Shown one piece after another: positions 1 through 9,000 of a DNA stretch of 14,811 nucleotides; within the stretch, counting starts at the first letter, position 1; every line of letters begins with the position of its first letter. Origin of the DNA: Verrucomicrobiota bacterium. GTDB taxonomy: Bacteria > Verrucomicrobiota > Verrucomicrobiia > Limisphaerales > CANJXF01. The position numbers were made by a program. The stretch lies in contig JBBQRQ010000117.1 in the NCBI GenBank assembly GCA_038214755.1, forward strand, positions 1 to 14,811, read 5' to 3'.

Positions 1-3000
1 AAGTTGCGGAAAATTTTCACCAAACGCGGCGTGCCGCTGACGACGGCGCTGATTGGGGGAGTGGTTTCAGCGAATTCTGTGCAAGCCGCACCGATTGGTT
101 TAGCGATCACGGTCGCGGCGACGGCGGCAAAGGGCGCCATAATTTCGGCAACACTAACAACACTGATAAAAGGAACTATGAAAACAATGACCTGGTTAAA
201 ACTCAAATTGGCGGCGGGTGTGGGCATGGCGGCATTGCTCGCTGGCGGCGCGGCGACGGTGGCGATTTCGCAGACGGGCAACGGCGACAAATTGACGACG
301 GCTGAAATTTTCAATAGAACACAAGCGGCCTACGCATCACTGACCAGTTACAGCGATGACGGGAAAAGCGTCGCGATCTTGAACGGCACTTCCTTCACAC
401 ATACGTTTTCCATCAAGCTTGGCCGACCAAATCTTTACCGGATTGAATGGGAGCAGCCGGTGCAGGCAAGCTACACTAACAAAGGCGTTGTCTGGTCGTC
501 GGGGGAAGGTGATTTTTTGGTCATGGGAGAGCGTAATGCGCGAAAAGAATCGAGCAAGGAAAGCGCGTTGTCCAGTGCGACCGGTATTTCCGGCAGCGCG
601 GCGGCAACCATTCCCGCAACATTTTTCAAAATGAACTGGGGCAATCAGCTTGGTGGCACGGTGGCGGGTCAAAAACGGCAAGCTGACGAGAAGGTGGGCG
701 ATGTGGATTGCTACGTTTTCATGAGCGACTTGAAAGGCCGGGCGAAGACGATGTGGATTGGCAAACAGGATTTTCTGATTCACCAAGTCCGAACCGTGAC
801 GAGCGCTGAAAACATGAAGGCAACCATGGCCGAGGCCGCCAAACGCAATCCTCAAATCGCCGCTCGAATGCCCAAGACTAAATATACAGACAGCACTTCC
901 ACCGAGACACACGAGAACATCGTGGTGAACCAGAAGTTTTCGCCGTCAGATTTCGCCCGTTGAAAAGCGGTAGAGGACTACCGCACTCCAAGACGCTTCG
1001 CGCTATTCCGTGCCTCATCGAAATTCGCGCGAGCGTCTTGGACTGCGGTAGTCCTCTACCGCTTTTGCAACAGCGCAATTAAATTCAGCTTCACTTGCAA
1101 TTCACCCGACGGCATTTTTATCTCATGCCGGAACCCAAAACGCCCTGGCCTCACGCCCCAACTCATCAGCTTGCCACGCGCGGCACTTATTTTGTGACGG
1201 GTTCCACTTTCGGACAACTTCATCATTTTCGCGGCGCAAAACGGTTGCGGGTTTTGCATCGCGGCTTGCTGACAGTGGCCGGAGAATTTGGCTGGCAATT
1301 GGAAGCGTGGGCGGTTTTCTCGAATCATTATCATTGTATCGCGCATTCGCCGCGCGACGCGACGGATGCTTCCAGCTTGAGCGCGATGTTGAGCATGTTG
1401 CATGTGAAAACTGCCGGTTGGATTAACAAGTTGGACAACGAACCGGGCCGACAGGTGTGGTTCAACTTTTGGGACACGCGACTGACGCATCAACGGTCTT
1501 ATCTGGCGCGATTGAATTATGTCCATCAAAACGCGGTGAAGCATGGGCTTGTGCCGGTGGCGTCTCAATATCCGTGGTGCTCGGCGGCCTGGTTTGAACG
1601 AACTGCTTCTCCGGCGATGGTGAAATCCATTTATCGGTTTAAGACGGATCGGATTTCGGTGGCGGATGAATTTGAGCCGGAGGCGGATTGGTGATGAATG
1701 CCAGTCTTGGTCGCGTCGCAGAAAGCGCCAGAGGACTGGCGCACTCCAAGACGCTTCGCGCTGTTCCGTGCCTCATCGAAATTCGCGCGAGCGTCTTGGA
1801 GTGCGGTAGTCCTCTACCGCTCTGGGAGGAACTCAACCGCGATTAAATTTTTCCACGATTTCGCGGATGGCGCGGGTGTGTTCGGGGGTGCTGCCGCAGC
1901 AGGAGCCGATAATGTTCGCGCCAGATTCAAGCGCGGCAGGAACGCCCAGCGCGAGGTCAGCAGCCGATTGTTTGTAAACGGCTTTCAAATTTTCCAGCAC
2001 GGGAAGTCCCGCGTTCGGTTGCACCATCACCGGCAAGCTACAACTCTCTCGGTAAATTTTTGCGACCATTGCTGCGCCCGGCATGTCCATGCCAGTGCCG
2101 CAATTTAACGCGATGATGTTTGCGCCTCGTCCTTCGACGAACGCGGCCGCTTGATCCGGCATCACGCCCATCATTGTGACGTAAAAACTTTGGTCTTGCG
2201 AAAGGTCGTAGGCGAATGAAGCTATTATGCACGGCGCGCCCGCAGCTTTCGCGGCATCAATCGCGACGCCGATTTCTTCCAGCGAAGTTTGGGTTTCGAT
2301 GATGATCGCATCTGCTCCAGCCTCGACCAGCGCGGCAGCTTGCTCTCGATACGCTTCGAACGCTTCTGCGTGCGGCATGTCGCCATAAGGTTCGAGAATC
2401 GCGCCGAGCGGACCGAGATCGCCGAGAACAAATCCTTCACGACCGCCAAATGCTTCGCGCGCGATGCGAACTCCGGCTTGATTTATTTCGCGTAAATCTT
2501 CCAGGTGCCCGTGTCGCTTCAACATCGTACGGCTGCCGCCAAAGGTGTTTGTGATGATGCAATCGGCGCCGGCGTTCGCGTAACGTTTTTGGATTTCAAG
2601 AACGCGTTCGGGATGCGTGAGATTCCAGTGTTCGCCGCAATTGCCTTGCTCGAGGCCGGCGAGCATGAGTTGTGTTCCCATCGCGCCATCGCCAACGAGA
2701 CGTCGTTCGCGCACGATTTCGTGAAGCAGCTTTCGGTTGTGACTCGTCATTCGTTTTAAATTCAATTCATCTGCGCTGCCAGATCCGAAGCTCCAAATTC
2801 CAAGCTCCAAGCTCCAGAGAAACTTCAATCACCAAGCACCAAACAAAGTCCTATTGCGCCTGCTAAACCTGGCAACACCCGGCAAAATTTGAAGCTTGGA
2901 ATTTGGTGTTTCTCTGGATCTTGGAGGTTGGTGCTTGGAGCTTTTCCAATTTACGCTGCAATCAAAATTTCCGTGTCCGTGATTTGCATTTCCACACCAG

Positions 3001-6000: not shown

Positions 6001-9000
6001 AATTTCTCCCGTTTCCAGATTCAACAACCGAATGACCACGGTGGTTGTGCCGAGATCCATCGCGATGCCATGAATCGGGCCGGTGCTACGCGCAATTTCT
6101 TCGCCATCGAGGAGAATGCGGTCGCCATCGCGCGTCACGGCGGGATCAAGTTCCATTTTCTTTCCGCTGGAAGGCAATTGAAACGCGTGGCGTTCGATCC
6201 GCATATCTCCGCGACGCAGGGTGTGGCAGCGCACGAGGCCAGAGTCTTGGACGATTTTACAGCGACAGGACAAACGGAAATTTTCCCGCAGATGGCTCTC
6301 CTCCTTCGTCGGCGCTGAGAGACAATCCATGCCCTCAATTACTTCGACCAAACACTCTTTGCACTTGCCTTGCTTACGACAGGACGTGGGAACTTTTATG
6401 CCCAATGTCTCTGCGTAATCGAAAAGCGAGGAGCCGGGAGTAACGTCGGTTTGTTGAAGATTAAAATGTAATTTCACGCTCATCTGTTCGCTCGCAAAAT
6501 CCATTTGAGCGGCTGCGAGCGTGAGGTTAAACGTGAGACTAAAAACGTCAAGGTTCGCATCCGCGATTTCACGTAGCGCAGGATTGCATCCTGCTGTATC
6601 GCCGGTTTGAAACCGGCTGAACGTCGCCAACAAGGAAAGCCTTTAGTTTTCGAAAGTCTTCCGTCCTGGCGGCATCTCGCAGGTTGAAAACCTGCGATAC
6701 GGCAGGATGCAATCCTGCGCTACAACTGATCGATTGACCGCCAGTTTAAATCGCACCCGTCCGCGAGGCCCTACACTATCCCGGACTGCGACCACAAAAT
6801 AGGAGCGCGGACGTTCTTCGTCCGCGAGTTTCTGAAGAGAATAATCTCCGCTGCAACAAACGCGCGGACGAAGAACGTCCGTGCTCCGTTTCGATCCACG
6901 CGCTCAAGCCAGGCGCGCGCGCGAAAGTTTGGACGAGCCGCAAAACACTTGCCTCGCTCGCAGCGCTTCGATAAAACTTTTCTGGCAATGGGATTTGCCT
7001 TCTCGCGAGTGCGGGAAAACCGCCTGAAAATTTTCAGCGCTGATAATTCCTACCGAAAACAAAAGGAGCGACGCTCGCCGAGGCGAACTTTCACAAAGCC
7101 GCCACAGAGGGCGGCGCTCCGAATCATCGGTAGGTTTTTTTTATGCTCAATTGTCTTTTAATTGCATTCGGTGGCGCGATTGGCAGCGCGGCGCGTTTTC
7201 TGGCGTCGGGATTAGTGGCTCGCCTTTTTGGTGAAACATTTCCGTGGGGCACCATCATCGTCAATATCACCGGATGTTTCGTCATCGGTTTTTTCGCCGC
7301 CTCGACGGGAACAGAAGGTCGCTGGCTCGTCTCGCCTGCGATCCGGCAATTTTTCATGATCGGAATTCTCGGCGGTTACACGACGTTTTCCTCTTTTGGT
7401 TTGCAAACACTCACGCTCGCCAAAGAGGGAGAATGGTTTCAAGCAGGAGCCAACATCGTTGTGTCGGTTGTGCTCTGTTTGACCGCAGTCTGGTTGGGCC
7501 ATGTTCTGGCGATGAACTTCAATTCCACCAAAGGATAAATATGCAAATTCCGCACGACGCAATTCTCTTGCGAATTTTTCTCGGCGAATCCGATCGCTGG
7601 CATCATCAGCCGTTGTATGAAGCCATTGTTCTCAAAGCGCGCGAACGGCATTTAGCCGGAGCGACGGTCTTGCGCGGCCCGATGGGTTTTGGAAAATCCA
7701 GCCGCTTGCACACTGCAAAAATTTTGCAACTTTCGAGGGACTTGCCACTGGTGATTGAAATTATTGATAGCAACGAAAAAATTCAAATGTTCCTGCCGGT
7801 GCTCGACGAAATGATGAGCGGCGGTTTGCTCACCCTCGAAAAAGTCAAAGTGATCGAGTGCCGCGCAAAAGACATCGAAGGAAAACAAGAAGAGGATGGA
7901 TCGAAGGAACAGTCCCATCCGGTTTGAGAGTCACGCCCATTTGATTCCAGGATGCGCGTCGCCACTTTGCAACCGTTCAAATTGATTGCCGATGAGTGAA
8001 AAAATTGCCGTCACGCAATCCTCGCCGCCCTGGCTGAACCGTACGGTGTTGGGCATTGGACTCGCCTCGTTGTTCAGTGATTGGTCGCACGAAATAGCGA
8101 CAACGGTCATGCCCGCCTTCCTTGCCACGATGGGCGTGGCGGCTGTGTGGCTGGGAATTATCGAAGGCGTTTCGGACGGGCTTTCCAGTTTTGCCAAACT
8201 GGGTTCGGGATTTTACACCGACAAACTGCGGAAACGAAAACCGATTGCCATCGTCGGCTACCTTGTCACGGCATTGGGAACAGCATCGTTTGCATTCGCG
8301 ACAAATACGTGGCATGTCCTGGTCGCTCGGGCTTGTGCCTGGCTGGGTCGCGGCGTGAGAACTCCCATACGCAAGACGCTCCTGGCCGGCGCAGTCAGTC
8401 GCGAAACGTACGGACGCGCTTTTGGATTCGAGCGGATGATGGATACAGTCGGAGCGATTGCCGGCCCGGCCACCGCATTTTTGCTCTTGCCGTTGGTGCA
8501 TCACCACTATCCGACGTTGTTCGCGCTCACTCTTATTCCGGGTCTCATCGCTGTCGCCGTCATCGCATTCCTTGTCAAAGAAAAGGAACGCAAGCCAGTG
8601 ACACACGTCAGTTTCGGCGAGAGTCTGCGCGCGTTGCCAATGCGCTTTCGGAAGTTCCTTTTCGCAGTCGGGTTGTTCGGACTCGGTGATTTTGCGCATA
8701 CACTTTTGATTCTGCTCGCCGCTCAAAAACTCGCGCCGAGTTTAGGCGCGGCCAAAGCTGCGGTCGTTGCGACCGGTTTGTATCTGTTGCGCAATATTTT
8801 CTACGCGAGTTTCGCGTTCCTCGCGGGCTGGCTGGCCGACCGTTTCAACAAAGGGCGACTCCTGGCGCTCGCTTACTTCCTCGCCTCGGTTATGTCATTC
8901 ACCTTGATCATACTTCCTCTGAACCCCTGGACGCTCGCGTTGGTCTTCACGCTCGGCGGGATATACGTCGCGATGGAGGAAACACTTGAAGACTCCTTCT

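Follow-up and report, generated by a model that had tools for sequence, protein, structure and literature searches.

A RamA-like corrinoid activase, a 420-residue protein (p420) and a 108-residue protein (p108), the latter two belonging to unnamed families, form one conserved unit that is linked with both corrinoid chemistry and a homocysteine S-methyltransferase, a conclusion that gene neighbourhoods in several phyla support. With moderate confidence, we read the cassette as one half of a corrinoid methyl-transfer hub, the half responsible for reactivation and output. The proposed hub is distributed across three loci and resembles the MtgBCDE/split-MetH system of Rhodobacterales. This reading draws on the gene content, conservation, synteny, N-domain fold, residue pattern and phyletic pattern that we observed, from which we infer where the methyl group comes from and which way it moves, as well as every statement on binding and metal content.

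The four-gene cassette

The window, a 14,811-nt stretch of Verrucomicrobiota DNA, contains the cassette reported in the survey's finding, and all four neighbouring open reading frames are present on the minus strand. The RamA/RACo-like ATP-dependent corrinoid reductive activase (4825..6504) has 559 residues from the ATG at 6504, and its frame is open as far as a TTG at 6633 (4825-6633; 602 residues). It is identified by the Pfam domains Fer2 (1.4e-10), Raco_middle (3.3e-35) and RACo_C_ter (1.4e-73), and it also matches the NCBIfam models AcsV (1.4e-91) and RamA (1.6e-46), in both cases under the curated cut-off. No other RACo_C_ter gene was found in the genome, making this the only RamA. RACo, RamA and the activating enzymes of anaerobic O-demethylases share with it the order of these three domains and, presumably, the use of ATP to reduce Co(II) to Co(I). 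To our knowledge, those enzymes are described as acting alone, whereas p420 always accompanies the cassette-type RamA lineage (all 10 p420-positive genomes in two order-level samples have RamA, and the genes are adjacent where they fall on one contig).

The genes for p420 (3388..4650, minus strand) and p108 (2951..3277, minus strand) are followed by a stand-alone, MtgE/Bhmt-like homocysteine S-methyltransferase module (1833..2750, minus strand), which has 305 residues from the ATG at 2750 and 331 from a TTG (1833-2828). This module matches Pfam S-methyl_trans (PF02574; 4.3e-59) and, under the cut-off, the NCBIfam model for betaine--homocysteine S-methyltransferase (3.5e-56). Its identity to the homocysteine domain of the MetH encoded in the same genome is 28%, and it retains the cysteines of the NC...CCG[ST]TPEH motif.

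Three palindromic repeat elements accompany these genes. The element with 41-nt arms (inverted repeat I4, 4662..4789; about 23 similar places in the genome) occupies the 174-nt spacer between RamA and p420. Another with 56-nt arms (I2, 2788..2943; about 7 places) lies within the 200-nt spacer between p108 and the homocysteine methyltransferase, and one with 65-nt arms (I1, 6573..6723; about 144 places) is upstream of the RamA start, where it overlaps the TTG-extended part of that frame.

Conservation and fold of p420 and p108

The survey had described p420 and p108 as strongly conserved proteins without a Pfam family, and this description holds. Neither matches Pfam at E<=0.01 or NCBIfam at E<=0.1, and a separate Pfam scan of the two p420 halves and of p108 at E<=10 gave a single chance-level match (SPMIP10-like, E 0.14). 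We found 3974 relatives of p420 at E<=1e-5 among 8000 scored proteins, and none of the 120 matches listed has a Pfam domain. Mean column identity is 69% in a 21-sequence p420 alignment, which contains the same set of invariant residues that the survey had listed, and 74% in an 18-sequence p108 alignment.

Across 169 unique full-length p420 members, C142, C223, C226, C231, C311, C353, C392, C394 and H411 are invariant. C340 (168/169), H401 (167/169) and H155 (166/169) are nearly so, and C103 is less conserved (151/169). A natural RamA-p420 fusion (P0239), which is 33% identical, retains the invariant cysteines and histidines; only two such fusions were found, each a singleton on one contig. Six other apparent fusions, in the p420 loci compared below, were rejected, as they proved to be open frames in another reading frame.

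The predicted model of p420 (pLDDT 69.7) divides the protein into a fold like the MetH activation domain (residues 1-215), a linker carrying C223-x2-C226-x4-C231 (216-265) and a Cys/His-rich domain without an assigned fold (266-420). Judged from this model, the first half is homologous in structure to the MetH activation domain, as the survey had proposed. Foldseek matched the stand-alone Thermotoga maritima domain TM0269 (1j6r) at E 2.9e-9 with TM(target) 0.78, and all 19 matches at E<=1e-3 are MetH activation domains. VIA-align superposed p420 on 194 of the 197 residues of 1j6r (Z 19.5, rmsd 2.3) and gave Z 15.5-16.3 for the Escherichia coli and Thermus thermophilus domains. A fold search with the C-terminal domain gave nothing reliable (best Z 6.6). 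Low-confidence loops of the model coincide with C311, C353 and C392/C394, so that metal binding is proposed from conservation only.

Several features nonetheless separate p420 from the MetH activation domain (PF02965; E. coli structures 1msk/6bdy). The Pfam model misses p420 even at E<=10, and the SAM motif RxxxGY reads HxxxGY, with His at the Arg position in 166 of 169 members. Local likeness is seen around xxxPGY and the last strand; G159-Y160 of the motif are retained, and E131, invariant in the 21-sequence alignment, probably matches E1101 of E. coli MetH. In a motif alignment made by eye, Y1130, Y1189 and Y1190, which are among the seven residues listed as SAM contacts in E. coli MetH, have no visible equivalent, and the corresponding positions are not aromatic. 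The Cx2Cx4C linker and the 155-residue Cys/His domain are additions absent from MetH, and p420 is encoded beside RamA without fusion to a Cob domain.

The small protein p108 is a predicted basic alpha/beta protein (pLDDT 81.2) with invariant C5, H28 and C49. Its model gave no Foldseek match at E<=1e-3 and no reliable VIA match (best Z 3.6). The Cys-rich half of p420 and p108 may have the electron-transfer or docking role that the survey gave them.

Genomic context and distribution

We compared 80 p420 loci, assigned by record title to Verrucomicrobiota, Acidobacteriota, Planctomycetota, Ignavibacteria, Bacteroidota, Rhodothermales and KSB1, and counted tblastn matches within 8 kb of p420. RamA adjoins p420 in 78 loci, and p108, which is always on the strand of p420, does so in 77; these counts are far above chance and confirm the conserved RamA context in several phyla that the survey had reported. 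The RamA-to-p420 match distance in the other loci has a median of 29 nt. Frequent neighbours are a corrinoid protein (57/80), a homocysteine methyltransferase (55/80), a Virulence_fact domain (54/80) and a URO-D methyltransferase (50/80), with a pterin methyltransferase (20/80), an amidohydrolase (16/80) and an MTHFR-like gene (15/80) found less often. GH67, GH115 or CE15 genes occur in 25 loci, a hint that 4-O-methyl-glucuronate may be a methyl donor.

Within its own genome, the cassette does not adjoin its presumed client genes. Contig C24 encodes a URO-D/MtaA-type methyltransferase next to a corrinoid protein (cap + B12) that is fused to a Virulence_fact domain (PF13769). No other free-standing cap + B12 corrinoid protein was found in the genome; this one has the motif DLHDIG, and its best NCBIfam model is MtgC-type (NF047996, 6.6e-54). 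Contig C55 carries a triad of an MTHFR-like gene, a pterin-binding methyltransferase and an amidohydrolase, and contig C29 a full-length MetH with its own Met_synt_B12 activation domain. The remaining B12-binding matches are MetH, three radical-SAM enzymes and one contig-end fragment, and searches of this genome for the MttB family (PF06253), DUF1638 (PF07796), GH67 and GH115 found none. The survey had read the cassette as a repair unit for a split methionine synthase. A conserved unit linked to corrinoids and homocysteine stands, but the client is not simply a split MetH, since a full-length MetH is present and the sole free-standing corrinoid protein adjoins a URO-D/MtaA-type methyltransferase. 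The context favours what the survey had entered as a caveat, namely that the cassette serves another corrinoid methyltransferase.

A sample of 121 genomes of the same order, which are relatives rather than independent samples, includes 35 with RamA; of these, 27 carry DUF1638 without p420, 6 carry p420 without DUF1638, and one each carries both or neither. The genome with both carries two RamA genes. URO-D methyltransferase homologues occur in 21 genomes of this sample, all RamA-positive, and homologues at >=77% identity are confined to p420-positive genomes; all four genomes with PF13769 are likewise p420-positive. This split between DUF1638 and p420 was not seen again in 101 genomes sampled from an Acidobacteriota order, where p420 accompanies 3 of 9 RamA-positive genomes, DUF1638 none and neither protein the other 6. 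Fontivita pretiosa has both p420 and DUF1638. The two proteins have no detectable homology (hhalign probability 0.3%), so replacement of one by the other is proposed from their distribution only.

Readings of the unit and relation to known systems

As an alternative to the hub, and as the survey read it, the unit could repair the cobalamin of a split MetH by reductive methylation, with RamA supplying an electron and p420 binding SAM and methylating Co(I), as the MetH activation domain does. The activation-domain fold, the retained G159-Y160 and the probable E1101 equivalent fit such a role, and a split MetH can be assembled from parts, with the homocysteine module next in the operon and a pterin module and corrinoid protein elsewhere in the genome. 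We nevertheless consider it unlikely, given the Arg-to-His change, the missing SAM contacts, the lack of a PF02965 match and an intact MetH, activation domain included, in the same genome. The first three of these observations also count against the survey's proposal that the cassette combines two reactivation chemistries, which presupposes SAM binding. URO-D-type methyltransferases are moreover commoner neighbours than pterin-type ones, and the RamA-type systems described so far need no SAM (PMC5764234, PMC12478193).

The motif change, together with the nearby invariant C142, suggests an altered ligand site and would also suit a catalytic p420 that moves methyl groups between the corrinoid and a non-SAM donor or acceptor, its Cys/His residues activating the substrate as zinc does in MtaA, MtaB and MetE. 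The activation domain originated as a methyl-to-cobalt transferase, and 30 of the 80 loci have no URO-D methyltransferase within 8 kb. Such absence says little, since in the present genome that gene is on another contig; p420 tracks RamA rather than any methyl donor gene, and its rare fusion partner is RamA and not a methyltransferase, which leaves this role distinctly improbable. We give the least weight to a chaperone role, in which p420 and p108, instead of transferring electrons, would load an apo-corrinoid protein with cobalamin or protect Co(I)/Co(II) against oxygen. A cap-like domain over the upper face of cobalamin suits loading or shielding, the carriers are by record title mostly soil or sediment bacteria of aerobic or facultative lineages, and one fold match (8ssc) is titled a full-length MetH structure, the title of its paper mentioning cofactor loading. 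At least nine invariant Cys/His residues, however, exceed the needs of a passive cap, and a redox role accords better with the close association with an ATP-driven reductase.

The hub reading, by contrast, has close parallels in the split MetH/MtgBCDE systems of the marine bacteria Phaeobacter inhibens and Ruegeria pomeroyi (PMC5764234, PMC12478193). Split MetH of P. inhibens requires RamA and DUF1638 (PMC5764234), and both are induced together with MtgBCDE in R. pomeroyi (PMC12478193). Common to these systems and ours are a separate corrinoid protein (cap + B12 domain, with an MtgC-type model as its best NCBIfam match), a separate MtgE/Bhmt-like homocysteine S-methyltransferase, a separate pterin-binding methyltransferase, and a Fer2 + ASKHA activase of RamA type with one further accessory protein. 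The parts are dispersed over several loci, and hosts may also have MetH. The donor methyltransferase is URO-D/MtaA-type here and MttB-type there, and the accessory is p420 with p108 here and DUF1638 there. Further differences are the Virulence_fact domain on the corrinoid protein, the phyla (Verrucomicrobiota, Acidobacteriota, Planctomycetota and others) and the frequent xylan side-chain genes nearby.

Acetogens and Desulfitobacterium have corrinoid O-demethylases of four components (MT I, corrinoid protein, MT II and activating enzyme), which likewise rely on a methyltransferase of the URO-D superfamily and a small corrinoid protein, together with a methyl-acceptor methyltransferase and an activase of RACo type. 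The present system differs in its acceptor (homocysteine and/or folate), in the additional conserved p420, p108 and Virulence_fact domain, and in hosts that by lineage are not obligate anaerobes. Because GH67, GH115, CE15 and UxuA genes are neighbours, its substrate is probably not an aryl methyl ether.

In the hub that we favour, the C24 methyltransferase would load a methyl group onto the adjoining His-on corrinoid protein, from which the cassette homocysteine S-methyltransferase would pass it to homocysteine to give methionine; the C55 pterin-binding methyltransferase and MTHFR-like enzyme could exchange methyl groups with the folate pool. Cobalt oxidised to Co(II) would be reduced by the RamA-like activase with ATP, and p420 would serve this RamA lineage as a dedicated partner. 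The N-terminal domain of p420 may cap cobalamin on its upper face, as happens when MetH is in its reactivation state, while the invariant Cys/His residues of the linker and C-terminal domain may bind one or two centres, metal or Fe-S, through which the electron is supplied or gated, with p108 as a small basic subunit of the p420 module. Together, p420 and p108 would stand in for the DUF1638 protein that accompanies RamA in other bacteria, and for many carriers a sugar methyl ether, for example 4-O-methyl-glucuronate, is the most likely methyl donor.

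A four-gene cassette around a RamA-like activase

The cassette at 1833-6504 consists of four genes that run in one direction on the minus strand. The first encodes a RamA/RACo-like activase (RamA; 4825-6504; 559 aa from its ATG) and is followed by the genes for a 420-aa protein (p420; 3388-4650), a 108-aa protein (p108; 2951-3277) and, last, a stand-alone homocysteine S-methyltransferase (1833-2750; 305 aa). The survey's factual statements about these genes were all reproduced. Neither p420 nor p108 matches a Pfam or NCBIfam family.

At 174, 110 and 200 nt, the spacers of the cassette exceed what is usual in an operon, and two of them, like the region upstream of RamA, contain long palindromic elements from repeat families dispersed through the genome. 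The distance between RamA and p420 matches in other genomes has a median of 29 nt. The palindromic elements lie at 4662-4789, 2788-2943, 6573-6723 and 6802-6887; the families of the first three occupy approximately 23, 7 and 144 places in the genome, respectively, and a further palindromic family approximately 29. A REP-associated tyrosine transposase-like gene (1095-1694, plus strand; NF047646, 9.5e-21, below cut-off) sits between inverted palindrome copies at 950-1079 and 1722-1821 (approximately 90 genome places). In the window, Rfam at E≤1 identified no riboswitch for cobalamin or SAM, and its weak matches to microRNA families there were dismissed as palindromic repeats.

The domains of RamA follow the order seen in RACo/RamA activases (Fer2, Raco_middle, RACo_C_ter): an N-terminal 2Fe-2S ferredoxin domain (Pfam Fer2, 1.4e-10, residues 61-127 of the 602-aa frame) followed by middle (Raco_middle, 3.3e-35) and ASKHA ATPase (RACo_C_ter, 1.4e-73) domains. 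It misses the NCBIfam cut-offs for AcsV (NF040756; 307.8 bits vs 800) and RamA (TIGR04270; 158.8 bits vs 500). Judged by these profiles, the protein is a superfamily member that falls in neither named subfamily, and its predicted activity is the ATP-dependent reduction of a Co(II) corrinoid protein. It is encoded by the only RamA gene in this genome.

A fluoride riboswitch (6975-7059, plus strand; RF01734, 40.4 bits against a gathering score of 34) precedes crcB (7143-7538, plus strand) and a DUF190 protein gene (7244-7927, plus strand); together they form an unremarkable fluoride-resistance unit that diverges from the corrinoid cassette. A low-GC segment on the minus strand (9736-12068; 0.46-0.48 vs approximately 0.54 elsewhere) encodes a C5 cytosine methylase, a Vsr mismatch endonuclease and an overlapping 274-aa ORF without a family, and is probably an acquired restriction-modification island. 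Segments of 92 and 220 nt within 11966-12378 and 13250-13671 are repeated 1.3 kb apart at 78-79% identity, surrounded by toxin-antitoxin-type genes (12402-14032, minus strand) for an MNT nucleotidyltransferase, a DUF433 protein and a MazF/PemK-like protein.

Domains and conserved residues of p420 and p108

Of 8000 candidates scored, at least 3974 are related to p420 at E≤1e-5, the best 120 with identities of 55-79%. Its structural model (pLDDT 69.7) is confident over residues 1-215, continues through a disordered linker (residues 216-265) that holds C223-x2-C226-x4-C231, and ends in a C-terminal domain (residues 266-420) whose low-confidence loops are confined to C311, C353 and C392/C394. The modelled N-terminal domain is clearly a structural homologue of the MetH activation domain: it superimposes on 1j6r with Z 19.5 and rmsd 2.3 over 194 of 197 residues (VIA), and on the Thermus thermophilus and Escherichia coli activation domains with Z 15.5-16.3 (8ssd, 16.3; 6bdy, 15.9; 3bul, 15.5), while Foldseek with p420 gave a best E of 2.9e-9 and all 19 matches at E≤1e-3 were MetH activation domains. 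By sequence, p420 and 1j6r barely recognise each other (phmmer E 0.099, hmmsearch E 0.052). The Pfam family PF02965 does not match residues 1-215 even at E≤10, and hhalign, a method insensitive here, gives the p420 alignment a probability of 0.16% against the activation domain of this genome's MetH, entered as one sequence.

A residue survey of 169 unique p420 members, 45-79% identical to the window protein, found C142, C223, C226, C231, C311, C353, C392, C394 and H411 invariant in all 169, with C340, H401 and H155 deviating in one to three members. The Cx2Cx4C spacing of the linker is that of the [4Fe-4S] site in the corrinoid iron-sulfur protein of acetogens, which makes it a lead. A profile of the C-terminal domain, searched against 1.84 billion representatives, retrieved 322 clusters at 50% identity and nothing beyond p420-like proteins and short pieces. 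The fold of this domain found no reliable match (best non-MetH Foldseek E approximately 0.1) and no usable match in the ESM Atlas. RnfG (7zc6_G) came out best by VIA at Z 6.6, which lies in the range of common arrangements, and a resemblance to IscU/NifU suggested by the order of secondary structures was unsupported by both fold searches and dropped.

In the survey's reading, two reactivation chemistries meet in this cassette, an ATP-driven electron from RamA and a SAM-dependent methylation by p420. The second is called into question by the replacement of RxxxGY with HxxxGY. The SAM contacts of E. coli MetH (1MSK) given in PMC1282579 are D946, E1101, Y1130, R1134, Y1139, Y1189 and Y1190. This genome's MetH reads Y-R-G-I-R-P-A-A-G-Y and K-Y-F at the contact places; the counterpart of the former in p420 is A-V-L-P-H-Y-S-P-G-Y, in which H155-x3-G159-Y160 stands in place of RxxxGY, with His in 166 of the 169 members. 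In an alignment made by eye around common motifs, as distinct from a structural superposition, the equivalent of Y1139 is retained in p420 and that of E1101 probably too, those of R1134, Y1130 and Y1189/Y1190 are missing, and D946 is unmapped; the stretch expected to hold Y1189/Y1190 merges into the cysteine linker. Because SAM-contact residues appear altered or unmatched in this mapping, SAM binding by p420 seems doubtful.

p108 is conserved more strongly than p420 (74% mean column identity across 18 sequences from several phyla). C5, H28 and C49 are invariant in this alignment, and lysines and arginines are numerous. The model is a small, confident alpha/beta structure (pLDDT 81.2) for which we obtained no fold match, the top Foldseek hits being designed proteins at TM 0.2-0.3 and the best VIA score Z 3.6. 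Four longer p108 forms look like frameshifted gene calls, as does the protein P0222.

The probable client of the cassette and its accessory proteins

A pattern scan of one genome per species identified 472 stretches encoding a relative, the best 80 of which were retained as loci. Neighbours within 8 kb of p420 were counted by tblastn with representatives (E≤1e-6, at least 40% query coverage). RamA (78/80 loci) and p108 (77/80) are near-constant companions, and the counts rise to 49/49 and 48/49 as fractions of the loci of at least 15 kb. A corrinoid protein with cap and B12 domains (57/80), a homocysteine methyltransferase (55/80), a Virulence_fact (PF13769) domain, either on its own or as part of the corrinoid protein (54/80), and a URO-D-type methyltransferase (50/80) are frequent; a pterin-binding methyltransferase (20/80), an amidohydrolase (16/80) and an MTHFR-like protein with DUF5981 (15/80) recur less often. 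p108 always shares the strand of p420, which it follows directly in 53 loci, and it follows the homocysteine gene in 23. Four further clusters, conserved genes at first sight, proved to be ORFs antisense to the URO-D, homocysteine methyltransferase, corrinoid and pterin genes.

Two natural RamA-p420 fusions were identified, P0239 and P0131 (789 aa). P0239 (948 aa) comprises a complete RamA, approximately 10 residues, and a p420 portion that is 33% identical to the window protein and retains HxSPGY, Cx2Cx4C and every Cys and His of the C-terminal domain. As each fusion is a singleton from one contig, the two can serve as no more than supporting evidence. In the loci, six long open frames that precede p420 run in a different frame from RamA and so do not count as fusions.

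The remaining components were sought in this 5.1-Mb, 97% complete assembly. On another contig, C24, the gene for a URO-D/MtaA-type methyltransferase (NCBIfam MtaA/CmuA, 1.4e-28, below cut-off) is followed by that of a corrinoid protein, and the pair adjoins a LacI regulator and an MFS transporter. The corrinoid protein (C24:46738-47715, or 10739-11722 of the C24 locus L100) is free-standing (B12-binding_2, 1.4e-16; B12-binding, 7.9e-25), carries the motif DLHDIG (DxHxxG), has as its best NCBIfam model the MtgC type of aerobic bacteria (6.6e-54, below cut-off) and ends in a Virulence_fact (PF13769) domain, which in other loci is a separate 84-aa protein. A third contig, C55, has MTHFR-like, pterin-binding and amidohydrolase genes together, and its pterin-binding methyltransferase (C55:28068-28994) is 66% identical to the Pterin_bind cluster protein of the loci. 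With the cassette, all nine conserved components are thus present, at three loci. Other B12-binding matches in the genome fall in three radical-SAM enzymes and in an 85-aa fragment where a contig ends.

The LacI regulator of L100 is flanked by the genes for a 1120-aa Ig-domain protein (L100:5953-9315, plus strand) and for a 991-aa protein without a family (L100:1636-4611, minus strand), whose only similar sequences are hypothetical proteins from Acidobacteriota and Gemmatimonadota. The assembly has a single PF01208 (URO-D) match, the MtaA-like methyltransferase, and a canonical hemE was not seen in it.

The survey had assigned the cassette to the cobalamin of a split MetH. What is supported of this assignment is a corrinoid reactivation unit with a methionine-forming output. 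The window's homocysteine S-methyltransferase (PF02574, 4.3e-59) shares 28% identity with the homocysteine domain in this genome's MetH and has the NC and CCG[ST]TPEH zinc cysteines in common with it. A split MetH would follow the precedent of Phaeobacter inhibens, in which Price et al., 2018 (PMC5764234) showed that methionine synthesis uses a MetH in three parts together with two accessory proteins, one RamA-like and one a DUF1638 protein whose role they left unassigned. On contig C29 the genome encodes a full-length MetH, its four modules all in a single open frame, so that methionine synthase is complete here without the cassette; Price et al. also noted that some bacteria with both accessory proteins retain a normal MetH. 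A second precedent is Ruegeria pomeroyi, in which Mausz et al., 2025 (PMC12478193) showed that one corrinoid protein (MtgC) and one pterin module (MtgD) are used in the demethylation of glycine betaine (MtgB) as well as in methionine synthesis (MtgE), with RamA and DUF1638 induced too. The present system follows the logic of split MetH and MtgBCDE and shares their free corrinoid, homocysteine and pterin-binding proteins; it differs in a donor enzyme of the URO-D type rather than the MttB type (the MttB family, PF06253, has no match in this genome), and in that p420 and p108 occupy the place of DUF1638 (PF07796), which was not found in the 97% complete genome (best E 0.3). The mlp gene clusters of anaerobes (PMC10418091) are a different system. 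The most likely client of the cassette is an MtgBCDE-like hub fed by a URO-D-type methyltransferase, rather than a split MetH.

A sample of 121 genomes from the window's order, the same set being searched with each query, allows the distributions of p420 and DUF1638 to be compared. RamA occurs in 35 genomes, DUF1638 in 29 and p420 in seven, all of which have RamA, adjacent to p420 where both are on one contig. Among the 35 RamA genomes, 27 have DUF1638 only, six p420 only, one both and one neither; the genome with both has two RamA genes, one adjoining p420, and DUF1638 without RamA was observed in one genome. PF13769 was found in four genomes, all with p420 (4/7 vs 0/114 without it). URO-D methyltransferase homologues (E≤1e-30; 21 genomes, all with RamA) reach 77-84% identity in p420 genomes only, and stand at 32-49% in 16 genomes with RamA but not p420, all but one of these carrying DUF1638. 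The genus to which the window belongs has two other species, both of them lacking RamA as well as p420, and the module is thus accessory and patchy. No p420 was found in a phylum-level sample of 150 other genomes.

This either/or pattern was not repeated in an Acidobacteriota order (101 genomes), where nine genomes have RamA, with adjacent p420 in three, DUF1638 in none and neither in six. The frames of all six RamA genes that lack a partner are longer, and five of the six score higher, so that they may be another subtype. The genomes G324, G353, G356, G357 and G367 carry five such RamA-like genes, with frames of 688-712 aa, RACo_C_ter scores of approximately 278 bits and neither p420 nor DUF1638; these five are perhaps a self-sufficient subtype. 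Fontivita pretiosa has both p420 and DUF1638. The two proteins show no detectable homology (hhalign probability 0.3%, with a three-sequence DUF1638 alignment), and conserved cysteines are abundant in both. Our best reading, to which we give even chances, is that p420, with p108, is the dedicated metal-bearing partner of this RamA lineage, for capping and electron input.

A candidate methyl donor and its implications

GH67 and GH115 enzymes strip (4-O-methyl-)glucuronic acid off xylan, CE15 esterases act on glucuronic acid esters, and UxuA functions in glucuronate catabolism. Genes for GH67, GH115 or CE15 were identified in 25 of the 80 loci, and these or UxuA or AXE1 in 30, far above expectation for a random 17-kb stretch. 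In the order sample, the URO-D homologue occurs in 10 of the 19 genomes with GH67 or GH115 vs 11 of the 102 without, and GH115 in 4 of the 7 genomes with p420 vs 12 of the 114 without, in both cases among genomes that are kin. An O-4 methyl ether would be expected to block the aldolase step of the standard pathway, which makes a demethylase plausible, and 4-O-methyl-glucuronate is a plausible first candidate for the methyl donor in many carriers. Against it, GH67 and GH115 are both missing from this genome, larger genomes hold more of everything and those compared are related, and an alkyl methyl ether is harder to cleave than the aryl ethers of known O-demethylases. Our literature search, with supplements outside its scope, found no paper joining corrinoids or cobalamin with 4-O-methyl-glucuronic acid or GH115, and we know of no description of corrinoid demethylation of sugar methyl ethers.

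Seven genomes (G160, G169, G174, G209, G232, G233 and G246) combine GH67/GH115 with RamA and a distant URO-D homologue (33-47%) and have no p420. Six of them have DUF1638, and G232 has neither accessory protein. A related demethylase system may thus run with DUF1638 as its accessory protein instead of p420.

Taken to its full extent, our reading is that p420 and p108 form a new metal- or Fe-S-bearing module for capping and electron input, which enables cobalamin reduction of the ATP-driven RamA type in non-anaerobic soil bacteria, as a non-homologous substitute for DUF1638, and that its client is a corrinoid demethylase of xylan-released 4-O-methyl-glucuronate which passes the methyl group directly to methionine or to folate; we offer this combination tentatively and consider it rather unlikely as a whole. 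If true, it would assign a function to p420 and p108, two abundant families so far annotated as hypothetical only. Price et al., 2018 (PMC5764234) raised the question of what the second accessory protein beside RamA does, and the appearance of p420 and DUF1638 as alternative RamA partners in one bacterial order bears on it. A sugar methyl ether donor, if true, would add sugars to the aryl ethers and amines as substrates of corrinoid demethylation, and one derived from xylan would mean that methionine and one-carbon metabolism are connected with the decay of plant cell walls in soil members of the Verrucomicrobiota, Acidobacteriota and Planctomycetota.
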